Shown here: positions 27,663 through 56,479 of the stretch, in pieces
Numbering within the stretch: position 1 is the first letter of the stretch
Layout of the letters: each line of letters begins with the position of its first letter
Program-made: the position numbers and the translations under genes
NCBI GenBank assembly: GCA_963695345.1
Contig: OY968769.1
Location: 2,176,001 to 2,240,000 of the forward strand
DNA length: 64,000 bases
Source: an uncultured Methanomassiliicoccales archaeon
GTDB lineage: Archaea; Thermoplasmatota; Thermoplasmata; Methanomassiliicoccales; UBA472
Reading direction: 5' to 3'
Notes under the pieces: generated by a model
Seen by the model: the letters and a program-made list of their open reading frames with translations, nothing else
Database searches by the model: none
What the model was told of the DNA's origin: nothing

Positions 27663-28736
27663 ATGCGGCTGCTAATCGTCACCTCAGAGTACGTTAACCT
27701 CAGCGCGGACCATAAGCGCGGTTCGGGGATCGCCCGGGTGGTTTTCGAGGCGGCCGAGGAGCTGAAGAATAGAGGCGTGACGGTGGAAATATGTTCTCCG
27801 GAGGGGCCGGAGATATTCATTCCGACGACCGGCATCCCGGGACGGATGGGGCTGGTGTTCTTCTGGCAGAAGGCCTTGCATGAATTGCGGAAGGTGGACT
27901 CGGGATACGACGCCATCTGGCTTCACAACCCGATCCTCCTGAGGAACTATCCGCGGAAGAGGCCGATGATCGCCACGATCCACTCGACCTCCCTCGGGAA
28001 GACAAGACGGTTCCGTTCCCTGTTCTTCACCGGGTACGTCTTCGCCACATCCGTCCTGGAGGTATGGTCGAACCGGGCGTTCAGCCGTTCGGGCTTTCAG
28101 GTCACCTGCGTATCCGACAGCGTCTGCAACGAACTGATCAACATCCAGTGGCAAAGGAAGAGGATAATCAGGAACGGTTCGATCTTCCCAGTGGTCTTCA
28201 AGCCAGCTCAAGCCGACGGCCGTCGCCCGGGCGCCAATTTCCTCTACGTGGGGAGGCTGGACAAGATAAAGAACGTGAGGCGGATCATCCGGCTCTACCA
28301 GTCCATCAAGAAGGAGATAGACGGCTGCTCCCTGGTCATCATCGGGGACGGGCCGGAGTATGCGGCCTTGCTGTCCGAGAACAAGGACCCGTCCATCAGT
28401 TTCAAGGGCTTCCTGGAGCATGATGACATCCTGCCCTACTATGACGATTCTGATTTCTTCTTCATGGCGTCGATCTACGAAGGCTGTCCGCTCACCCTCC
28501 TCGACGCCGTGAACCGGGGGCTGAGATGCATCGTCCCCAACATTCCGTCCCTCGCGTTCATCGAGGAAATGGAGCTGGGCAAGTGCTACGACAACAGCGA
28601 TGACCGGCTGGCGTCTCAGCAGCTGGTAGAATTCATCAAGCAGAACTCCGGGAAGCCGAGAACGAACCGGGTCGATTTCACATGGAAACCGGCGATAGAC
28701 GGATACATGTCGCTGTTCGAGGGCAAGGAGAAATGA
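27663..28736 (+). CDS. Glycosyltransferase family 4
   Basis: YVGRLDKIKN, IGDGPE and YEGCPLTLLD. Confidence 0.9.
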   Translation: MRLLIVTSEYVNLSADHKRGSGIARVVFEAAEELKNRGVTVEICSPEGPEIFIPTTGIPGRMGLVFFWQKALHELRKVDSGYDAIWLHNPILLRNYPRKRPMIATIHSTSLGKTRRFRSLFFTGYVFATSVLEVWSNRAFSRSGFQVTCVSDSVCNELINIQWQRKRIIRNGSIFPVVFKPAQADGRRPGANFLYVGRLDKIKNVRRIIRLYQSIKKEIDGCSLVIIGDGPEYAALLSENKDPSISFKGFLEHDDILPYYDDSDFFFMASIYEGCPLTLLDAVNRGLRCIVPNIPSLAFIEEMELGKCYDNSDDRLASQQLVEFIKQNSGKPRTNRVDFTWKPAIDGYMSLFEGKEK

Positions 28737-32855: not shown

Positions 32856-34364
32856 ATGATCGGTCGTAGAACCCTCTTAATCATCATATCAAACGTCGGC
32901 GCCGCGGCGCTTTCCTTCATCGGGCTATTGTTCATGACGAACTACCTGGGTAAGGATGTCTACGGCAACATCGCCTGGGTCCTGGCAACGACCGGTACGT
33001 TGAACATCGTGTCAGACCTCGGTTTCATGAGCGCCCACGTCAAAAGGGTGTCCGAGGGGCAGGACGAGAACGATTGTTTCTCCACGTATTTCGTGATCAA
33101 GTCATCCCTTACCGCCTTCATGGTGGTCTTCACCTTCGTGGCTCTGGTCGTTTGGACCGATATCAGCAACACCGCCATAACACCCGAGGCCTGGAACCTG
33201 GTCATCTTATTCCTCCTGTACTGGGTGATGTACGACCTGGCCCATGTCGTGGTGCAAACATACAACGGCAGGAGGGAGACGACCAAGGCTCAGATGATCC
33301 TGCTCACCGATCCCCTGATACGCGTTCCTTTCATCATCTTCATATCCATCAATCATGGTAGCACGTTCGAGCTGGCGTTCTCCTATGTCTTCGCGTCGTT
33401 CGCGGTCCTGCTGGTGGCTCTGTTCTTCATGAGAAGGGGCACCCTCCGCTGGAAGAAACCGACGCTGTTCCGTTCCTACATCAAGTTCGCCCTGCCGATC
33501 TCACTGATCTCCATCGCCGGGGCCATCACCGTCAACCTGGACAAGATACTGATCGGCGTCTTCGATTCGCCGGCTAACGTCGCCTTCTACTCCTCCTCGC
33601 AGACCATATTGGCCACGGTGGGCGTGATAGGCACGGCGGTGGCGACGCTGGCTTTCCCCTCGTTCTCCTACTTGCATAGTAAAGGGGACCTCGAGACCAT
33701 CAAGAAGACCACCTATGCGGCGGAACGGTACATCGCCATGATCGGGATCCCGATCGTGACCCTGGTCGTCCTGTTCCCTACTCAGATATGCGTTACGGTC
33801 TTCGGGGCGGACTTCCGCCCGGCCGGACAGACGATGCAGTTCCTCGGGTTCACGTTGGGAATGACGATGCTCAACCAGGTGTACACGTCCCAGATAATGG
33901 GCGTCAACCGGCCGGACATCACCGCCAAGATCATTCTGGGAACGTTCTTTTTGAACCTCGGCCTGATGCTGGTGTTCATTCCGCACGACCTGTTCGGGTT
34001 CCATATGCTCGGCCTGTCGTACGCGGGGGCGGCGATGGCCAACGTGATCACCGCGACGACGGTGTTCCTGACGGTGCGCATGGTGGTGAAGAGACTGACC
34101 GGTACCGGTACCGAGCGGAGGATGTGGAAGCATCTGGCGGCAGCGGCGTCGGCTGGAGCGGTGCTCGTATTGCTGAATACGATCTATCCCCTCGGAGGGT
34201 TCATTTCCCTGGCGATCTTCTTCCTGGTCCTGGAGGCGATCTTCTTCGGAATGCTGGTAGCGCTCAAGGAATTCACCATCTGGGACCTAAGGCAGATTCT
34301 GGACCTCATCAATCCCGCCAAGATGCTGAAGTATATGGGAGAAGAGATGAACAACAAGAAATGA
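32856..34364 (+). CDS. Wzx-like oligosaccharide flippase
   Basis: 502-aa polytopic protein with DLG, NLDKILIG and FPSFS. Colinear paralogue of 3847-5356. Confidence 0.9.
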   Translation: MIGRRTLLIIISNVGAAALSFIGLLFMTNYLGKDVYGNIAWVLATTGTLNIVSDLGFMSAHVKRVSEGQDENDCFSTYFVIKSSLTAFMVVFTFVALVVWTDISNTAITPEAWNLVILFLLYWVMYDLAHVVVQTYNGRRETTKAQMILLTDPLIRVPFIIFISINHGSTFELAFSYVFASFAVLLVALFFMRRGTLRWKKPTLFRSYIKFALPISLISIAGAITVNLDKILIGVFDSPANVAFYSSSQTILATVGVIGTAVATLAFPSFSYLHSKGDLETIKKTTYAAERYIAMIGIPIVTLVVLFPTQICVTVFGADFRPAGQTMQFLGFTLGMTMLNQVYTSQIMGVNRPDITAKIILGTFFLNLGLMLVFIPHDLFGFHMLGLSYAGAAMANVITATTVFLTVRMVVKRLTGTGTERRMWKHLAAAASAGAVLVLLNTIYPLGGFISLAIFFLVLEAIFFGMLVALKEFTIWDLRQILDLINPAKMLKYMGEEMNNKK

Positions 34365-34699
34365 CCGTTCATCGTGAACGGCCAGCACCCATCGAACTTG
34401 TACTCGCCCTGCTTCCGTGTAGCACCATTTTTCCCGCAGGGCCGTTCTCTCCATCCAGTATCGAGACAAATTGTACCTTGATGCGTCTTTGGCTGTCGAA
34501 GCGTTACTGTGTTCGTAAACATGATATGAGTTCATTCTAACGAGCGGAACCTATCACCGGTGAACGCTTCTTGCATCCGTTACGTTTTCATCAGGAAAGT
34601 GCCTTTCATCCCATCTCAACTTCTGAACGAATCGTTATTCTGATGAGCCCGACCGAGCTTGGGGGCTGTGCATAGTATAAGAATTTGGTGATTTCATTT

Positions 34700-34795
34700 G
34701 TTAAACTAATATCAAAAAAGTTCATATTTTAGAAGGCCAAATGTCATTCAGTTCTTAATATGATGACATATTTCAATATAATTTTGTTTATATCT
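34700..34795 (+). promoter_or_regulatory. Archaeal promoter with conserved upstream boxes (copy A)
   Basis: GTTAAACTAATAT, TTCATATT, TATGATGA and ATATAATTTTGTTTATATCT (containing TATA-like TTTATAT) recur with near-identical spacing at 54901-54995 on the minus strand. Confidence 0.75.
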
Positions 34796-34816
34796 TATCG
34801 TTTTCTATCTTAAATC

Positions 34817-35067
34817 ATGGGCGGGCAAGCGAAAGAGCTCTCGTTGAGGGTTAGTCCGTTCATTCCGTCGGATGGAATTCCGTCGGATCAGTTGCGATCG
34901 ACATCGACTGGATCCATTTTCGATCCAGGATGTTCAGGCTGTATTTCCCAGGGCGATTTCTTTCGATCGCCTGTAAACACGAGGAAGAACAGCTGACGAT
35001 CATCCAATCGTCAGGATGTGCCTCGATCAGTCTGCTGTAGTGAAACGTAACGAAGGAGCTGATAAAC
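34817..35067 (+). ncRNA. Candidate structured 5' leader RNA (copy A)
   Basis: Homologous to 54628-54880 (-). Four hairpins keep their pairing despite sequence changes. Confidence 0.65.
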
Positions 35068-35283
35068 ATGAGAATGGTATCATCAGGGAAGGACAAGAGC
35101 AGGATGGGCGTTGCGACGGCCTTAATAGTCGCGAAGGAACCCACAGCGACGGTCGATCAGTCCGTTTTGTGTCAAGGGGCGAACAAAACCAGGGACCGGG
35201 CATGGACGATCGGCGATCAGGCGATGAAAAAGAACTGTTACGAGAACGTCTCAAGCCAAAGCGGGGGCTGTTCCATATGGTAA
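35068..35283 (+). CDS. Small upstream peptide (71 aa), homologue of 54355-54627
   Basis: SD-like GGAGCTGA upstream, synonymous divergence from its paralogue, and a stop overlapping the downstream start (ATGGTAA). Confidence 0.7.
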   Translation: MRMVSSGKDKSRMGVATALIVAKEPTATVDQSVLCQGANKTRDRAWTIGDQAMKKNCYENVSSQSGGCSIW

Positions 35284-36684
35284 GGATCAGGTTCAACGGC
35301 AGGTCCCTCACGCTGCTGTCGATGATGATCGTGGGGGCGATGATCGGAACATCCCTCCTGGGTGCCGCGTCGGTTCAGGGTGCCACCGCCCCGGTCGTGC
35401 CCCTCGGGGACGGGACGTCGGTTTCAGTGTCCTACACCATTTACAAAGATGGCAGCGGATACACCTGCGCGAAGAACGCGATAACCGCCGCAATCGATTT
35501 CCGGGACACCAACTCCCGAACGGTGATTCAGAAGGCGATCGACAAGCTGTCGGGCGGCTATGTCTACATCAAGGCAGGAACGTATGACATTTCCAAGACC
35601 ATCTACACGAACAAAGTGTCGATCGTCGGCGACGGGAACGGGACCATACTCAAGATCGGCACCACCGTTCACAGCGCAGGCCTGCTGGTGACGAACGGCT
35701 ACTACAAGCTCGATGGCACCTACATGTCCAGCCGTCCGACCGGCATCACCATCAGCAACCTCCAGGTCGACGGCAACCGGGCCGTCAGGACCAGCGGGAC
35801 GATGGAAGGCATCGGCATGATAAACACCCTGAACAGCAAGATCTTCAGGGTCTACGTGCACGACGTGATCGCTGGGACAGGGCATCTACATGTCCAACTC
35901 GCAGTACTGCAGCATTAAGAACAGCCAGGTCTACAACATCGGGGATACGACATACGCGCACTACGGATCGGGAATCGCGTTCGGCGAGGCTTCATCTTCG
36001 AAGATAGCATCGGCGTACATCACCATCGACAAGGTGCGGATCACGAAAGTGTCGATGTCCTGCATCGACCTGGAGCCGGCCAACCACGTGACCATAACCA
36101 ACTGCGTTTTCCGTGAGGCCTCGACCTGGAACGGGCACGCCACCCCGGTGATAACGGAATATGTGATATCCGGATGGGGGGCAAATGATTACATCACGGC
36201 CACCGGCAACAATATGTACGGTGCATTCGGGGAGTTCATCGTCCTGACGCCGAGCAACCATTGTGTGATCAGCAACAACGTCATCACCTATACCGCCGGG
36301 AAAACGGCCGCCATATACTCCACCGGGTCGTACGACAATGTGATCAAAGGGAACAAGATCACGACCATCCAGAAGGACGCGATCGTGGGAGTGAACTGCC
36401 GGTCGTTCTTGGTGGAAGGCAACACGATCGACGAGGCGGCCACGGGTCAGAACGCCTACGGGATCCGGTTCTTCGAATCCGGCGGCACATCGTCCGACAA
36501 CCAGATCAAGAGCAACACGGTCATCGGTTTCAAGTACGCCATCACGGCCAACTACGGTAGCGACTACTCGACGATCACGTACAACACCGTCAAGTCAAGC
36601 TATGTCGGCCTGATGCTGACCGGAACGCACAATGTCAAGATCGGCAACGTGCTGAACGGAGCGCTGGAACGGATATCCGCGTAA
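35277..36684 (+). CDS. Secreted right-handed beta-helix protein (frameshift at GGG 35874-35876)
   Basis: Paralogue of 20465-21889. Removing one G gives IAGQGIYMSNS, matching INGQGFYMTNS in the paralogue. Confidence 0.85.
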
Positions 36685-36932
36685 GCTGAGTGGAGAGCAT
36701 TCGGAGAAAAAACGCCAACAACGACCGGTCCTGCGGTTCGCGGGCCCGGTCTTACTTTTTCGACCTGGATCATCGACCAGACCATGTTCTCACGGAATTG
36801 GGAACATTGGAGCGCCTTTCATTCATTGTTTTCGCACTTTCATGGGGCGCGATGGCTATCCTACCGTGTCGTTCGTCAGGAAACAGCATGGGTCGGGAGA
36901 TTTACTTAGCCTTTTGACCGGCCGTTGACCCA

Positions 36933-37595
36933 TCACCGGAACGGCGTCTTCCAGCTCGTGTTCAAGGTGTATTTGTTGACCGGCCTCGCCTTGATGAACT
37001 TCGCCGGGACGCCGCCCACCATGGTCCATGCCGGAACGTCCTTGGTGACAACGGCTCCGGTGGCCACCACCGCACCTTCTCGCACGGTGATGCCTGGTAG
37101 GATGGTCACTCCGGCCCCGATGTAGACCCAATCCTCTATGGTGACCTTGCCTCTGGTCGCTCCGAACCCTGGGTCGTTGATGTCGTGCTCCATGGTGAAG
37201 ATCTTGAGGTCATCGCCGATGTTGACGTTGTTGCCGATGGCTATGCCCGCCCTGAAATCCAACGACGCATCGGTTCCGACGATCGAATTGTGTCCTATGA
37301 TGAGATTCCGAGTGCTGCCCCGGAATTTGCAGCCCCGGTTAATGTGGGAGGACTTGGGCATCCTGACCCGGAAAACGTACCGGTACAGGGTCGACCGCAG
37401 CCAGTGTCCATAGAGGTAACCGGTCCCGTTGCACAGGACGCACTTCAGGTTGACGAAATAGTCTCTTGTATGGGCCGCTATGGTCGCCAACTCATCATTG
37501 GATTTTAGAAATGACACGATCCTGTCCTGAAATGGGTTGCGAACTGACAATGGAACAGCCCTCTTGGGTAAGGCTAACATCCCCTTCAATTTCAA
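36933..37595 (-). CDS. Hexapeptide-repeat (LbH) O-acyltransferase
   Basis: IGNNVNIG, EH, IEDWVYIGAGVTILPG, GAVVTKDVP and GGVPAK. Start uncertain. Confidence 0.88.
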   Translation of the reverse strand: MKLKGMLALPKRAVPLSVRNPFQDRIVSFLKSNDELATIAAHTRDYFVNLKCVLCNGTGYLYGHWLRSTLYRYVFRVRMPKSSHINRGCKFRGSTRNLIIGHNSIVGTDASLDFRAGIAIGNNVNIGDDLKIFTMEHDINDPGFGATRGKVTIEDWVYIGAGVTILPGITVREGAVVATGAVVTKDVPAWTMVGGVPAKFIKARPVNKYTLNTSWKTPFR

Positions 37596-37683
37596 TATTT
37601 CGCAATTATCATATTATCGGGTTTGAAAGAAAAATACACTTGTAATAATATAATTAATCACGAGCCAGGTGGAACGATCAGGA

Positions 37684-38700
37684 TCACTTAGTCCTGATAT
37701 CCTTTAGCGGGATCTCCTTGCCATCCCGGTCGTACTCGGCGACGATCCGTGGCGGCCTCCGGAAGTACTGGGGCATTTCGCCCAGGGTGGAGAAGCGGAA
37801 CTGGTTGTCCTTGGCATAGGCGAGGGCCATCTCGATCTTGTCGAGGAGGGTCTGGCAATCCTTTTCCGTATCTGCGTACGGTGACGCTCCTGGCATGACC
37901 TCCATCGAATGGAACATCATGGTCAGGGTGACGTCCTTCTTGTCGGCATGCTGCTTAACGACCTGCCTCATCACCTCGACCATGCCCTCTCCGGTGTTGT
38001 TGGAGGGGCGGAGCCACTGCAGCCGATAGAGTCGATCGGTCAATGAATGGAGGGCTGTTGAATGCCATTTCCTGTGCTTCTCCGGTTCCAGGATGGTGAC
38101 AGGGACCTCGAGCACGCCGCGGCCGTTGGGCGCCAGCATGTCCGTCTCCATGGGGTAGTATGGTTGGTCGGGGGCATTGAGGTAGTTGGCACGGCCCTCC
38201 TTGTAATTCCAGTCGATGTTCGGGGTCACGGACGAGTCGACCTTGTAGTTGAGCTCGTCGAGGATCCTAAGAGTGTTGAGCCCTGCTCCGAAGCGGCCGG
38301 CGCGGAAAGACAGTGGTTTGTAGCCCAGGCGGGTGGCGAACAGCGCGGTGAGGTTCACCATCTTCTGCCGCTCGATCTCGTAGGTGTACGAGGATTGCAT
38401 GTTGTCGGTGGCCATGTTCGCCATGCTTCCCTGGTGACCGAGGGGGTCGATCATGTCCCCGTGCATATGGGTCCCGAGCTCGCAGTCCTTTAGGTGCTTG
38501 AGCACGGAGAGGCAGGCGTCGTCCCTGATCACTTCGGGCGAGAGAAGATAGGTGGGCTTGGCTCCGTACTTGGCGAACAGCCTGCCGAGCTTGTCCGGGA
38601 TACCGGTCGTGACGGAGGAGAAGCTTTCGTTGGCGGAGACCTTCCAGTCCTTACCCTTGTCTATCTCGGTATCGATGGTGATGAGCAGATGGATGGCCAT
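37684..38700 (-). CDS. Polysaccharide deacetylase-like protein (NodB/CE4-related)
   Basis: TIDTE, ELGTHMH, SFRAGRF, DSSV and MFHS. Confidence 0.8.
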   Translation of the reverse strand: MAIHLLITIDTEIDKGKDWKVSANESFSSVTTGIPDKLGRLFAKYGAKPTYLLSPEVIRDDACLSVLKHLKDCELGTHMHGDMIDPLGHQGSMANMATDNMQSSYTYEIERQKMVNLTALFATRLGYKPLSFRAGRFGAGLNTLRILDELNYKVDSSVTPNIDWNYKEGRANYLNAPDQPYYPMETDMLAPNGRGVLEVPVTILEPEKHRKWHSTALHSLTDRLYRLQWLRPSNNTGEGMVEVMRQVVKQHADKKDVTLTMMFHSMEVMPGASPYADTEKDCQTLLDKIEMALAYAKDNQFRFSTLGEMPQYFRRPPRIVAEYDRDGKEIPLKDIRTK

Positions 38701-50826: not shown

Positions 50827-51951
50827 GTGTTTTACTATCATATGGACCCGAGCGTCACTAATATCAAAAGCGTCCGTGACAAGATCATTGCCCAGGCCCA
50901 GGGATTGATCGCCAACGGGATCGATGTCACCATCGTGATCGGTCAAGAGGACGAGCGTGTCTCTCGCGAAATGAAGCAGACCAACAATATCAGAACCATT
51001 TATTTAAATAAAGTAACCAAGAATAAATACCTTGGATATTTCACCGATTTTGCAGATCTGATGCGGTTCACCATGAGCCTCAATGAGAACGATATCCTAT
51101 ACACAAGATATTCGCCTTTTTCACTGTTCATTGTCCCCAGAAATTGCACCATCATCACAGAGCATCAGACCAAGGAGTCGATGGAATACAAGTCGAACTC
51201 ATTTCTCCCGTTCATGATGGAAAGATGTTTCGGGAAGCTAAACAGGAGAATGCGCGATTACTATGTCGCAGTGACTGGGGAGATATCCGATTTCGAATCC
51301 CAGTACGGTGAAGCGGGCCATATTGTGATACCGAACGGGATATCCCTGCAAAACATTCCAGTGATAACCAGAAAGGCGGCGGTCGGCGAGGAGTTCCATG
51401 TAGTCGGCTTGGCAAATGTCTCCCTATGGCATGGATACGATCGCATGATCGAAGGTCTGAACAGATACTCCGGCCCGGTGAAAGTCTATTTCCATATCAT
51501 AGGGGAGGGTCTAGAGCTTCCCAACCTGAGACTCCTGGCCAAGAAATATGGGCTGGAAGAGCGGGTGATATTCCACGGCCATATGAGAGGAAATGAATTG
51601 AACAGCATCATGGACAACTATCACATCGCCATCGGGGCGCTGGGCATCCACCGGATAGGGATCAGGGAGGCGGCGACATTGAAGAGCCGAGAATACTGTT
51701 CCAGGGGCATTCCTTTCATCGAGGATACGATCGATGGCGATTTCAAGGATTTCCCCTATCGATACCAGATAGAACCCGAAGAGAGCCCTATCGACGTCGG
51801 CAAACTGATCGAATTCTTCAATGGATTTGCATCGGATGACTATCCTCGAAAAATGAGAGAATATGCGGAACAGAACCTGACCTGGGAAAGTAAAATGAAA
51901 GTGCTGAAGACGTTCCTCACAGAGATCCGTTCGAAGAACGGGTCATCCTAG
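50827..51951 (+). CDS. Glycosyltransferase family 4-like
   Basis: IPNGI, WHGYDR, IIGEG and LKSREYCSRGIPF. Start uncertain. Confidence 0.83.
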   Translation: MFYYHMDPSVTNIKSVRDKIIAQAQGLIANGIDVTIVIGQEDERVSREMKQTNNIRTIYLNKVTKNKYLGYFTDFADLMRFTMSLNENDILYTRYSPFSLFIVPRNCTIITEHQTKESMEYKSNSFLPFMMERCFGKLNRRMRDYYVAVTGEISDFESQYGEAGHIVIPNGISLQNIPVITRKAAVGEEFHVVGLANVSLWHGYDRMIEGLNRYSGPVKVYFHIIGEGLELPNLRLLAKKYGLEERVIFHGHMRGNELNSIMDNYHIAIGALGIHRIGIREAATLKSREYCSRGIPFIEDTIDGDFKDFPYRYQIEPEESPIDVGKLIEFFNGFASDDYPRKMREYAEQNLTWESKMKVLKTFLTEIRSKNGSS

Positions 51952-52050
51952 AGGCAAGCCTAACAGAATATCGGCCTTCTTTCTTCCTTCTAGTAAGATA
52001 TCCATCGGGCGGACCGCTCTCCGTCATTCTGTCCGTGGGCCCTTCCTTCA

Positions 52051-52743
52051 TCAGTCCGTGTTCAGAACATTGACGTGGTGTGAGATCTCGTAGTATAGGA
52101 TTATCGTCGAAATGTAGCTTACCAGGAACATGAATATGGCGACATGCCAGCCCAGCACGCCCGGGGCATGGTAAACGGTCCAGTAGCTTTTTGGATATGA
52201 GAGGACCAGGAAACAACTGTAAGCCCATACCGCCGTGCTTAGAAACCAGGCGACCAACACCAATATCCCCAAGACGCCAAACCGTTCCGATCTCGGTTGA
52301 CCATACGGAGTGTTACCGACCTCTATCCCATCTGGCCCCACGGCCTGGCATTGCTGGGACCGCTGCAGCTCACCTTTGGCCTTCGCTGCACGTTTTGATC
52401 GAGAGTAGCTCCACATTATCACGTACAGAATGATGGATGCGAGGCAGACCCCCACCATCAATATTCCTGACCGAAGGAAGGTGAAGAACGGAACGTAGTC
52501 GATGACAAGGTCATTCAAATGAACGAGAGATGGATTGAACGTAAGTCTGAACGATATATAGACCAGGAACAACAGACTGTACACTCCAGAGGCGAAAAAG
52601 ACAGCCTTCGTTATCTTGAACCATCTCGACTCATGTCGGTTAACAGTTCCTTGACATGCGTTACCCAACGAGCTTCTCCCCGGTCTCGCAAACACATCAT
52701 AATAATTCAAGTTTTCATTTAGTGCGAGGCAACTTTCGGGCAA
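52051..52743 (-). CDS. Hypothetical 4-TM membrane protein
   Basis: Two helical-hairpin units ending SIILY and TIILY. The true start is probably downstream of 52743. Confidence 0.55.
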   Translation of the reverse strand: MPESCLALNENLNYYDVFARPGRSSLGNACQGTVNRHESRWFKITKAVFFASGVYSLLFLVYISFRLTFNPSLVHLNDLVIDYVPFFTFLRSGILMVGVCLASIILYVIMWSYSRSKRAAKAKGELQRSQQCQAVGPDGIEVGNTPYGQPRSERFGVLGILVLVAWFLSTAVWAYSCFLVLSYPKSYWTVYHAPGVLGWHVAIFMFLVSYISTIILYYEISHHVNVLNTD

Positions 52744-53022
52744 CCTACTTTTTCACACGGATCCTAATTGAGATTGGGTTGACGATTTCGCAGGCGGAAT
52801 GGATCGAGAGGATCCGTCCAGAATGCGGCCACCATCCTATTTCAGCATCAACTCCGGACAATAGAGAAAGAGATGGAGGAGACCTTGGCCTTCTAATCTA
52901 TTGGAGAAAATAAAGAATATAAGATGTTTGAAGGACGGGAACCGTCCAATTCACGACCACTTCACCGATGCCGTTCTCGCGGTCATCGGCTACGGTCACG
53001 GTCGTTGCGCACTGGTTACCCA

Positions 53023-54355
53023 TTACGCGTGCGGTGCCGCGTGGACCTCCGTGCTAAGGGCTCCTATTCCGACCGCGTTGACCGCGGCGATCTTGAAGTA
53101 ATAGGTTACCCCGTTAGTCAGATAGGTGTTCGTGTACGACGTGCCAGGACCGATCGTCGCGACCAGGGTTTCCGTTCCGGAAGACCAGCCGCGGTAGATC
53201 TTATAGGCGGTGATCGCCGATCCGCCGGTGGACGGTGCGGTCCAGGTCAGCTTGACCGCTGTGTTGGAACCGGTCGCGGTTATCGATGTTACCTTGCCCG
53301 GGACACCTGACGTTGGTGTCGGTGTCGGTGTCGGTGTCGGGGTTGAGGTGGTCGGTATTGAAGAGCTGCCGCAGTTGAGGACCGTTCCCGTCTTCTGGAT
53401 CATGCTCAGCCCTTCATAGTTGCCGACTCCCTTGCAGTTTATGCAGGAGACGCCCGGTACCTGGAATCCCTGGAACCGGAAGCCGTAGCCGTAGTAGGTG
53501 GGGCACTTGGGGCGCTGTCCGTTGTAGTTGGCAACGCAATCGATCAGCTTGATGTTCTTCGGGGACGAACCGTACTCGACGTGGAACCCGGAACACCAGT
53601 TGTAGTTCGCTGAGCATCTGGTCAGGATGATGTTCTCCACACGGGTGCACTCGACCAGGTCATATCCAACAATCCAGGCATTGACCCAGCCGATGTTGTC
53701 GCCGCCGTTGTGGCTGGCATCGCAGTCGGTAAAGGCAACGTTCCTGATCAGGCTCTTACCGGAATAACTATTGTCATCGCCGAACAGCAGGAATCCATAG
53801 GTCTGGGAGTATGTGACGGTGCAGCGGGTGAATTTCACACCATCGATCATGCCGTTTGCGCCAACGTACAACCAGAACCCGGCGTTCATGTCTCCCGTCA
53901 AGGTCGTGGCGTGAACATCGGTGAAGACCCAGTTCCCGCAGGTCCCTCCAGCCTTATATCCGTATATCTGGAGGTGTCCCGTGAACTTGAACGATTGCAT
54001 CGTAACGTACGAGACTCCCTTGATGTAGAAGTTGTGAGACGAGGTCGATTTGAAAACGGTCGAATCACCATCGCCTTTCAATGTCGTTCCTGTGCCGAAG
54101 TATACGTGGGCCGTGATCATGTAAGTTCCGGCTGGAACGTATGTCACCTTATTGATATTCGACAACGCCCAGTTCAAGGCGGCGGTGAACGATGCCGCGC
54201 TGTATACTGTTCTTCCTGATGAGTCAACGACCACGTTGGATGAGACCTTGTAGTCATATGCTCCGGCGGCGCTGACATCGCTGGCCATCGATGGGAAAAG
54301 CGGATACCGTCAGTCCCATGACGACCAACACGAGGAGGCAATTCCTGAGCTTCAT
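53023..54355 (-). CDS. Secreted beta-helix protein with Pro/Thr linker and C-terminal fibronectin type III domain (frameshift in signal peptide)
   Basis: VPAGTY...GDG cap, beta-helix repeats, (TP)n linker, and FN3 signature LTWTAP...YKIYR...LTNGVTYYFKIAAVN. Signal peptide MKLRNCLLVLVVMGLTVSAFP from ATG 54355 joins the long frame if one base of the run at 54293-54295 is removed. Confidence 0.85.
53315..53338. repeat. (GGTGTC)x4 tandem repeat encoding the Thr-Pro linker
   Basis: Directly visible and in frame within the FN3 protein. Confidence 0.9.
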
Positions 54356-54627
54356 TACGCTACCCCGTGGTCATTGCCCGTGCATTTCTCATTCCGAGGA
54401 CCAGCGTACTTATCCGCCATGGTACCATTCTGCCGATCGTCGATGCGGCTGGCCTGGCGGCTGCTAGTGCCCGATATGGTCCAAGAATACCTGATTCTTG
54501 TTTTATTCGCCATACAGTTCATCCCTGACAAGGCAAACGCCGCTCCGGGTTCCGTTGCGGCGAAGATGGCCGTCCTGGAGACGCCCTTCCCTCGCTTGTC
54601 TGTCTTCGATGGTAGTCCCATTCTCAT
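54355..54627 (-). CDS. Small upstream peptide (90 aa), homologue of 35068-35283
   Basis: GGGAGC SD-like site, MRM start, shared TA..A.EP.A, ANKTR and WTI motifs, and a TAATG overlap with the downstream start. Confidence 0.7.
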   Translation of the reverse strand: MRMGLPSKTDKRGKGVSRTAIFAATEPGAAFALSGMNCMANKTRIRYSWTISGTSSRQASRIDDRQNGTMADKYAGPRNEKCTGNDHGVA

Positions 54628-54880
54628 GTTTTTCAAGCTCCCTTTCGTTACGTTGCACTCAGATAGACTGAGAAGAGACAGTTTAACCAGACGACACGAT
54701 GGTCGCCGAGGGTCTGCCTCATATGCCGGCGATTGGAAGAATCGCTGTAAGGCGTACAGCCTGAACATCAGGAATCGAAAATGAATTCCACGATGTCGAT
54801 TGCAACTGAACCCGACGGAGTATCACCGACGGCAGAGTGAACAAAACCCCCGACGAGGGTTCTTCCATTTGTTCTCTCAT
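54628..54880 (-). ncRNA. Candidate structured 5' leader RNA (copy B)
   Basis: Homologous to 34817-35067, with pairing-preserving substitutions in the stems. Confidence 0.65.
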
Positions 54881-54900
54881 AATTAGGCAATTGTTTAATG

Positions 54901-54995
54901 AGATATAAACAAAATTATATCTAAATCATTCATCATAATAAATAACATCATAATATTTGCACCAGTAATATGAAATATATCCATATTAGTTTAAC
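54901..54995 (-). promoter_or_regulatory. Archaeal promoter with conserved upstream boxes (copy B)
   Basis: Same four boxes as 34700-34795, including the identical 20-mer at 54901-54920. Confidence 0.75.
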
Positions 54996-55537
54996 GAATG
55001 GATTCGTTACCTTCTTATAACATGACCGGTTGCCGCGACCTCGGCATCGCGAGCGTTTCCCTCTTTTTGTTACGTCGAAAACGACGAAATGGCAGTCCGA
55101 TTGAGGACGGTTTATGTACGAACTTCCACATCGGAGCGCCTGAGTCCACATACCAAGTTTCTGTAATGATCCGTGGGTCGCACTGCCGCGGATATCTTGG
55201 AATCATGGGATCTGCCCGGCGCCGAGACTTCAGTTCTACGCCCTTTGAGCGGATGATCCGATAAGGCTTGATACTATTGTGTATAGTTCAAGCGATCCCA
55301 TTTTGACGCATCCAGATGAAAAACTATCGTCCTACCCCTGTTAACAATATGGCAGGCGATCGTGGACACCCGACCAAAATGAATGATCGTGAGCAATAAG
55401 GTACCTGGCCGTTCACCTATTTGCAATCCTTACGGGTATATACCGATATGATTCCTCTCGATTCCAGATGCCAAAAATCCACTCAATGACAAAGTTACAT
55501 CAATTAATTTATATCATCGTCATGAATAGAGAATGAC

Positions 55538-56479
55538 ATGGAGACGAAATCCATTCTCGTCACCGGCGGGACAGGTTTTATCGGGACTAACTTGGTCAAC
55601 GAGCTACGTTCCCGGGGAAACCAGGTCATTGCGTCCGATCTACTGAACTGCGAACGCGATGGCTTCATCAGGGCCGATGCCAAGAACTATAGACAGTTGG
55701 AACGCCTGTTCGAAAAGAACAAATTCGATTTTGTTTATCATCTGGCCGCGGAATACGGCCGATGGAACGGCGAAGACCACTATGAGAACCTGTGGGAGAC
55801 GAACGTCATAGGCACCAAGCACATGCTGCGCCTGCAGGAGAAGAAGAAGTTCAAGATGATCTTCTTCTCCAGCGCCGAGGTCTATGGCGACTTTTCCGGT
55901 GTCATGACCGAGGACGTCATGGAGAACACCCCGGTGAAAGAGACGTACCAGATGAACGATTACGCCATCACCAAATGGGCGGGAGAGCTGATGTGCATGA
56001 ACTCGGCCAAGATGTTCGGCACCGAGACCGTCCGGGTGCGTCCGGTCAACTGCTACGGACCCGGGGAGCACTACACCCCTTACCGTGGTTTCATTCCGAA
56101 ATTCATCTATCATTCTCTGTTCGACAAGCCGTACGTCGTGTTCCGGCAGCACAAGCGTATCATCGACTTCGTCGAGGATACCTGCAGGACGTTCGCCAAC
56201 ATCTCGGAGAACTTCATTCCCGGAGAGGTCTACAACGTCGGCGGCAAACAGGAATGGGAACGGAACATCCAGTGGTACTCGGATGCGATCTTGAAGGCGG
56301 TCGGCAAGGACGATTCAAAGGTCATCTATAAGGATGCGGAAGGCTTCACGACCGACATCAAGACGATAGACAGTAGCAAGGCCATCAAGGATCTGAGGCA
56401 CGATCCGAAGGTTACTCCCGAGGAAGGGATCAAGCGGACCGTGGACTGGATGAAATGGTATTACAGGATCGGTGTGTAA
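55538..56479 (+). CDS. NAD-dependent epimerase/dehydratase (extended SDR)
   Basis: TGGTGFIG, HLAA, SSAEVYG and YAITK. Confidence 0.92.
   Translation: METKSILVTGGTGFIGTNLVNELRSRGNQVIASDLLNCERDGFIRADAKNYRQLERLFEKNKFDFVYHLAAEYGRWNGEDHYENLWETNVIGTKHMLRLQEKKKFKMIFFSSAEVYGDFSGVMTEDVMENTPVKETYQMNDYAITKWAGELMCMNSAKMFGTETVRVRPVNCYGPGEHYTPYRGFIPKFIYHSLFDKPYVVFRQHKRIIDFVEDTCRTFANISENFIPGEVYNVGGKQEWERNIQWYSDAILKAVGKDDSKVIYKDAEGFTTDIKTIDSSKAIKDLRHDPKVTPEEGIKRTVDWMKWYYRIGV

Follow-up and report, generated by a model that had tools for sequence, protein, structure and literature searches.

The 64,000-nt stretch of DNA analyzed here (the window) belongs to a genome assembled as a single 2.56-Mb contig, which encodes McrA and an archaeal 16S rRNA. 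It contains two loci, designated A and B, each with a small ORF whose end runs into the beginning of a secreted beta-helix protein gene. Small ORF A occupies positions 35068-35283 (+) and comprises 71 codons, and small ORF B occupies positions 54627-54355 (-), with 90 codons that start at the residues MRM within a longer stop-to-stop frame of 137 aa; both lie exactly where a preliminary description of this DNA, made from the sequence alone, had placed them. That description had aligned the two peptides by hand, counting 23 identities in 51 columns; blastp returned 24 identities over 51 columns (47%) with three one-residue gaps (E-value of 6e-07), and the synonymous differences that it had listed for the conserved motifs (AAC/AAT, ACC/ACA, AGG/AGA, ACG/ACC, and ATC/ATA) are all found in the DNA. 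The similarity between the two loci begins, however, some 370 nt upstream of the ORF, and takes in a promoter-like block and a structured leader that had gone unnoticed.

The most distal part of this conserved region comprises promoter-proximal blocks, located at positions 34675-34800 (+) in copy A and 54890-54990 (-) in copy B, which are nearly invariant among 15 aligned copies from six genomes and contain the TATA-like sequence TTTATATC (34787-34794 in copy A and 54909-54902 in copy B). From their sequence, we infer that these blocks would contain a promoter, with transcription starting around 25 nt downstream of the TATA-like element. Two nearly invariant AT-rich blocks can be distinguished 5′ of the leader, GATTTCATTTGTTAAA..TTAATATC and TTATTATGAT...ATATAATTTTGTTTATATC, and the whole is likely to comprise a promoter together with a binding site for a regulator.

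The leader RNA extends over positions 34832-35072 (+) in copy A and 54625-54865 (-) in copy B, which match a covariance model of 245 positions (R1) with Infernal E-values of 6.1e-65 and 5.6e-70, respectively, and share the same helices. In an alignment of 14 sequences, its 49 base pairs, arranged in nine helices, are paired in 93.5% of the cells, compared to 30-42% when the partners are slid; additionally, 20 pairs show compensatory changes, vs. 7.5 ± 1.9 in shuffled alignments (none of 500 reached the observed value), and G-U pairs are numerous. We did not find any match in Rfam 15 at the gathering score in the whole window, or at E ≤ 1 in the region 34700-35350. A search of genomes with the covariance model, done under strict filters, identified the leader in the source genome and in five out of seven congeners, and in none of 144 genomes from 33 other genera of the order. 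Out of 17 matches, 15 precede a full small ORF; the remaining two are half-length and correspond to a copy in genome G005 that precedes a 5′-truncated ORF and to a second one in genome G007. Likewise, an nhmmer search of the source genome with a profile of the leader retrieved only five copies, none of them upstream of archaellin genes. This 245-nt leader may be a new cis-regulatory RNA. Two candidate features of this region were discarded: a 59-aa ORF inside leader A (34817-34996), because indels in the leader are mostly frame-breaking (30 out of 35 gap runs), and a pairing of the sequence GGCGATC from the small ORF with the 3′ strand of a leader hairpin, because the copies that vary at this place do not covary.

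The genes downstream of the small ORFs code for right-handed beta-helix proteins (PF13229; NosD-like and pectate-lyase-like), which in the B type also contain fibronectin-III domains, and belong to at least three kinds according to their N-terminal sequence. Gene A (35277-36684, +; PF12708, PF13229, and PF05048) starts with a signal-peptide-like N-terminus and is broken by a 1-nt insertion into two frames (35277-35918 and 35890-36684); the insertion, near position 35873, was placed by alignment to the intact paralog C, of 388 aa. Gene B (53023-54355, -; PF00041, PF13229, and PF12708) is composed of a signal-peptide piece (54355-54254) and a body in another frame (54288-53023), because of a 1-nt insertion near position 54290; its orthologs in genomes G005 and G007 are uninterrupted, with 587 and 542 aa, respectively. 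Neither of these insertions lies within a homopolymer and the genome, though in one contig, scores 85% complete; thus, they may be assembly indels or they may reveal real pseudogenes.

Both the small ORF and the downstream gene are preceded by Shine-Dalgarno sites that are complementary to the 3′ end of the genome's own 16S rRNA (GGATCACCTCCT), in agreement with the sites that had been pointed out by eye for the two small ORFs. The site of small ORF A (AGGAGCTGAT, positions 35054-35063, +) has nine out of 10 bases complementary to the 16S 3′ end and a duplex energy of -10.6 kcal/mol, which is -7.4 kcal/mol for small ORF B; the median values were -9.2 kcal/mol for the small ORFs and -7.9 kcal/mol for the downstream genes, vs. 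a background median of -4.6 kcal/mol. A purine-rich site is found 8-14 nt before the start of the downstream gene in all 15 copies, and coincides with conserved R-G-C codons at the end of the peptide; in copy A, this is the sequence GGGGG at positions 35263-35267 (+), within the last codons of the small ORF (conserved R/G-G-C codons). As previously noticed, the stop codon of the small ORF overlaps the downstream start in both loci, as ATGGTAA in A (ATG at 35277) and TAATG in B (ATG at 54355), and this arrangement is conserved: the two genes are on the same strand in 15 out of 15 copies, with stop-to-start offsets of -8, -7, -4 (eight copies), -1 (three copies), +2, and +4 nt. The varying offsets at the junction and the signal-peptide-like N-termini of the downstream proteins led us to reject the possibility that frameshifting or read-through would fuse the peptide to the beta-helix protein.

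This geometry is that of gene pairs translated by termination and reinitiation. Huber et al. (2019; PMC6728339) describe 13 out of 14 overlapping pairs as strictly coupled in Haloferax volcanii and E. coli, and Huber et al. (2023; PMC10666635) indicate that coupling requires overlaps or very short distances; according to the experiments of both papers, coupling by this geometry is tight and fails at a distance of about 20 nt. The pairs examined here resemble those in being co-directional, in their offsets, mostly of -4 or -1 nt, and in having a Shine-Dalgarno site inside the 3′ end of the upstream gene, and differ from them in that the upstream partner is a gene fragment of 64-90 codons, instead of a subunit of a complex, and in that coupling is here predicted from the sequence geometry.

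The preliminary description had considered the two ORFs as members of a small-peptide family, and the searches agree with this, with a similarity far beyond chance. A DNA search of the genome identified five copies, three of them within about 62 kb, and five other congeneric genomes contribute ten more, making 15 copies in six genomes. The five copies from the source genome contain an open small ORF of 65-90 codons, the stop of which overlaps the start codon of a gene whose product has a signal-peptide-like N-terminus (as judged by eye and not by a predictor), and every copy is located between the covarying 245-nt leader RNA and a beta-helix gene. A profile search against 5.8 billion proteins retrieved only 15 clusters, with members of 58-90 aa that were nameless or designated hypothetical proteins, the only name given to these ORFs in public annotation, and when 1.84 billion representatives were searched exhaustively with an HMM, 35 matches were obtained, nearly all of 52-117 aa. 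There are 49 distinct small members when those from metagenomes are included, with a median length of around 70 aa; this count leaves out three truncated archaellins and three aberrant long sequences. The family is real and confined to one genus of methanogens. There were no matches in Pfam to five of the peptides at E ≤ 10, or in NCBIfam to three of them at E ≤ 0.1, and looking up the peptides in a protein atlas did not give any usable match. The C-terminal tails of peptides A and B had been described as unrelated, which is correct for the comparison between the two subtypes and not within each of them, where the tail is conserved; the longer tail of small ORF B is common to the B-subtype members from congeners and metagenomes. 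Incidentally, two metagenome members (P0030 and P0043) carry an inserted H-P-H-x-P-N-L-L-S-D-G-M-N that replaces the W-x-I-G-D-Q part and is conserved between them, constituting a third subtype.

The origin of these peptides, which had been missed, was revealed by searching 61 related genomes, in six frames, with a profile of the family. The profile matched the first 60 residues of ORFs of 200-235 aa organized in tandem arrays (E-value of around 4e-12 per genome), which are archaellins (PF01917, E-value of 1.3e-25; TIGR02537), and a comparison of the peptides with the archaellin N-terminus using hhalign gave a probability of 97.4% (E-value of 1.4e-11) over 61 columns with 38% identity. The similarity to the archaellin gene also occurs at the DNA level, spanning from the Shine-Dalgarno site (around position -20) to around +190, with some 30 nt over the W-K-K-D-K-R codons being nearly identical, whereas the sequences farther upstream are unrelated; in two divergent copies (G007b and its G005 ortholog), homology reaches approximately archaellin residue 75. 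These results show that the small ORF originates from an archaellin gene, as a captured 5′ fragment of a gene of the lineage itself. The apparent donor family is an array outside of the window (G000:C1:685663-691846, -) with four tandem archaellin genes followed by ArlF- and ArlG-like genes; there is a fifth archaellin gene in the same genome near position 543,000.

The peptides share with archaellins (ArlB/FlaB; PF01917/TIGR02537) a basic N-terminus, the K-D-K-R-x-M-G-V region of the cleavage site, the S-V-L-x-x-x-A-N-K-x-R stretch and G-D-Q-A, besides the DNA similarity that includes the Shine-Dalgarno site. However, they end after 64-90 aa without the C-terminal globular domain, are not recognized by Pfam or NCBIfam models, and have lost the hydrophobic helix: the maximal Kyte-Doolittle mean over 19 residues is 0.2-1.67 in 14 peptides (≤1.5 in 13 of them), vs. 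3.01 in the archaellins from the same genomes. Likewise, the Gly at position -1 of the class III cleavage site is conserved in only 10 out of 14 copies, with A, T, R, or S in the others. The peptide is therefore a derived archaellin fragment and not a working archaellin and, having lost the membrane helix, it is no longer a substrate of the pilin type. Very short archaeal type IV pilins do exist, such as EpdE from Methanococcus maripaludis, of 74 aa, and pilins need a hydrophobic N-terminal helix and the -1 Gly. The peptides are similar to EpdE in their length of about 70 aa and in an N-terminus with class III signal-peptide ancestry, and they differ in that neither the hydrophobic helix nor the -1 Gly is conserved, for which a reading as pilins failed.

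The captured fragment could be merely a functionless relic of the archaellin gene, open by chance or because of its recency, and several observations would fit well with this: it is demonstrably a gene fragment in which the hydrophobic helix has decayed, it is present in a single genus and some copies show damage in the start codon or in the 5′ part of the frame. In particular, the first ATG is mutated in copy G003a, and copy G005a has lost 1 nt at codon 7, which leaves it open only when read from an internal ATG. The preliminary description, however, had interpreted whole-codon indels as an indication of selection on the protein, and the comparison of copies largely supports this. We did not find any stop in frame 0 in the 14 copies, whereas the other five frames contain totals of 61, 26, 21, 20, and 26 stops; the antisense ORFs over the small ORF were discarded because the antisense frames hold 20-26 stops. 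When the 11 A-type copies were aligned at the nucleotide level only, three gap runs resulted in the ORF core (171 columns), of 3, 3, and 18 nt, all of them multiples of three, compared to only five out of 35 in the adjacent leader (286 columns). Additionally, when the consensus was evolved neutrally along the ORF's own tree, with a length of 2.3 substitutions per site, none of 2,000 simulations kept the 11 ORFs open, with a mean of 3.8 out of 11. Over 55 pairs, the pN/pS ratio was 0.56 in frame, compared to 1.03 and 0.90 for the two shifted frames, and none of four regions of the ORF reached 1 (0.69, 0.62, 0.44, and 0.74). Finally, what decay without selection looks like can be seen in genome G001, where a true relic, a leaderless archaellin fragment without a beta-helix gene (L060:2501-2701, -; G001:C58), has accumulated four stops; it is not a member of the family. 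A relic is therefore a quite improbable explanation.

The small ORF is thus open, its indels preserve the frame and it is under moderate purifying selection, and we infer from this that it is translated in the cell. Selection is weaker on the small ORF (0.56-0.60) than on the neighboring gene (0.40). At synonymous sites, the divergence of the small ORF (0.49) resembles that of the downstream gene (0.57), and at non-synonymous sites (0.28) it is near the per-site divergence of the leader (0.30). The entropy of the three codon positions is only mildly skewed (0.81, 0.80, and 0.98), and the trio of B-type sequences did not show any pN/pS signal (0.60, 0.90, and 1.00). There is, moreover, a second locus in genome G005 (L077; G005:C4:26510-29604) in which half a leader and a 5′-truncated B-type small ORF (around 28010-28104 and downstream) are followed by an intact beta-helix gene; the cassette is decaying in this copy, which indicates that the module is dispensable at least there.

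Alternatively, the region might not be translated at all and owe its conservation to its structure as RNA, by which the leader would be prolonged at its 3′ end. The leader immediately upstream is indeed strongly covarying, RNAalifold predicts a hairpin in codons 12-21 as well as a weak stem, of 5 bp, spanning the codons for W and Q-A, and the third positions of several codons of the conserved motif barely vary. This would leave unexplained, however, the lack of stops in only one frame, the whole-codon indels and the frame-specific pN/pS, as well as the conservation of a strong Shine-Dalgarno site and an ATG; besides, the 3′ 126-153 nt of the ORF do not fold better than shuffled sequences (z-scores of -1.8 to +0.7). 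We thus consider it highly unlikely that conservation is due to RNA structure only.

A role as a regulatory leader or arrest peptide had also been proposed for the small ORF, and such a peptide could monitor secretion. SecM, MifM, and VemP are regulatory upstream ORFs of this type, whose nascent chains keep the ribosome stalled until the export machinery pulls on them, and the resemblance lies in a short ORF, which here comes from an export signal and has an internal peptide motif that is conserved, located before a gene connected with secretion. Nevertheless, the small-ORF peptides have not kept any hydrophobic segment able to interact with SRP or the translocon, there are 7-16 codons between the end of the conserved motif and the stop, and the downstream genes code for secreted cargo and not for secretion machinery. 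Furthermore, no conserved hairpin sequestering the downstream Shine-Dalgarno site was found with RNAalifold (-9 kcal/mol) or from the folding of single sequences, with the z-scores given above. This role therefore did not hold up and has very little probability in our judgement.

A more serious alternative is that the product functions in trans, as a soluble and basic small protein with one helix, made in a fixed proportion to the beta-helix protein and acting elsewhere; for example, it could be a feedback regulator binding its own leader RNA or interfere with the handling of archaellins. Binding to the leader RNA and a chaperone function in secretion were among the roles that the preliminary description had proposed. 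In agreement with this, pN/pS is below 1 in every region of the ORF and reaches its lowest value (0.44) in the motif N-K-x-R-D-x-A-W-x-I-G-D-Q-A-M-K-K, and none of the 14 genomic copies varies at residues N39 and W46. Among the 49 members, of conserved length, GDQ.M.K is found in 32 and the W in at least 39. The peptides have a net charge of +1 to +10 and a helix predicted at residues 31-54, which corresponds to the N-terminal helix of archaellins. Also, overlapping pairs are enriched for subunits of complexes (PMC10666635). Conversely, the strength of selection is low for a protein with a specific partner, in comparison with the neighboring gene, and the B subtype has the GDQAMKK part replaced altogether. 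Synonymous sites are slowed in the motif as well (pS of 0.37, vs. 0.55-0.58 elsewhere), indicating that part of its conservation occurs at the nucleotide level. The AlphaFold2 model, obtained with a 14-row alignment, was mostly disordered outside of the helix and of low confidence (pLDDT of 53), too low for a fold search, and we did not find any family, structure or atlas match pointing to an activity. A complex prediction of peptide C with its beta-helix protein scored 0.01, which is not evidence either way. In all, a function in trans is possible, although it is not the explanation that we prefer.

In a particular version of a trans role, the peptide, which keeps the helix motif of the archaellin N-terminus and no longer inserts into the membrane, would be an archaellin mimic, made together with adhesin-like beta-helix proteins of the surface, that in the cytoplasm would restrain the handling or assembly of archaellins or bind its own leader. 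MrpJ and PapX are motility repressors encoded in bacterial fimbrial operons, of which such a mimic would be an archaeal counterpart. We deem this rather unlikely; if true, a captured fragment of a motility gene would link the expression of surface proteins to motility.

The explanation that we favor, by a modest preference, is that the small ORF is a cis-acting upstream ORF, derived from the 5′ end of an archaellin gene, that hands ribosomes over to the beta-helix gene. According to this model, the Shine-Dalgarno site and the first 60-77 codons of an archaellin gene would have been copied between a new structured leader and a gene for a secreted beta-helix protein, such that the leader would control the access to an archaellin-type initiation region. 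Ribosomes would initiate immediately 3′ of the folded leader, at an ATG with an archaellin-type Shine-Dalgarno site, read 64-90 codons, terminate at -8 to +4 nt from the start of the beta-helix gene and reinitiate there, assisted by the Shine-Dalgarno site located within the last codons of the small ORF. Since the ribosomes would read the small ORF and then reinitiate, the control exerted by the leader on the first start would be passed on to the beta-helix gene. While the two Shine-Dalgarno sites and the stop/start geometry are directly observed, that coupling operates, and that the main role of the ORF is in cis rather than through its peptide, are what this arrangement would imply; the downstream gene, having its own Shine-Dalgarno site, could also be initiated independently.

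A purely cis role for the small ORF predicts a pN/pS near 1, whereas the observed values are 0.44-0.74, and the invariant N39 and W46, together with the recurring motif, suggest that the amino acid sequence itself matters to some degree. Our assessment of the cis-acting upstream ORF as somewhat probable, and of a protein acting in trans as a lesser possibility, comes from weighing these two aspects, because a pure conduit should drift toward a ratio near 1 and yet the conservation of the motif is partly at the nucleotide level.

Upstream ORFs, overlapping coupled gene pairs and archaellins are already known. In the literature searched, which did not include subscription journals and supplements, and in the family libraries, we found no description of an upstream ORF derived from an archaellin, nor of the combination of an archaellin 5′ fragment as a conserved upstream ORF with a new leader RNA, multiplied before genes for secreted beta-helix proteins. 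This combination represents a clean and datable case of reuse of a gene fragment: a structural gene expressed at a high level has provided its Shine-Dalgarno site and its first 60-77 codons, which selection maintains as an upstream ORF, within a cassette that occurs five times in the genome, before secreted beta-helix proteins of at least three kinds. Should the coupling model be correct, this would show how archaea can assemble portable expression cassettes out of parts that they already have; a peptide active in trans would instead represent a new type of small protein in archaea, tying surface proteins to the motility apparatus.

Regarding their genomic context, the two cassettes from the window are included in an island for glycan synthesis (32856-38700 and 50827-56479), with neighboring genes for a Wzx/MurJ-type flippase, a hexapeptide acyltransferase, a GT1/GT4 glycosyltransferase and an NAD-dependent epimerase, and a third cassette is located around 32 kb past the end of the window.
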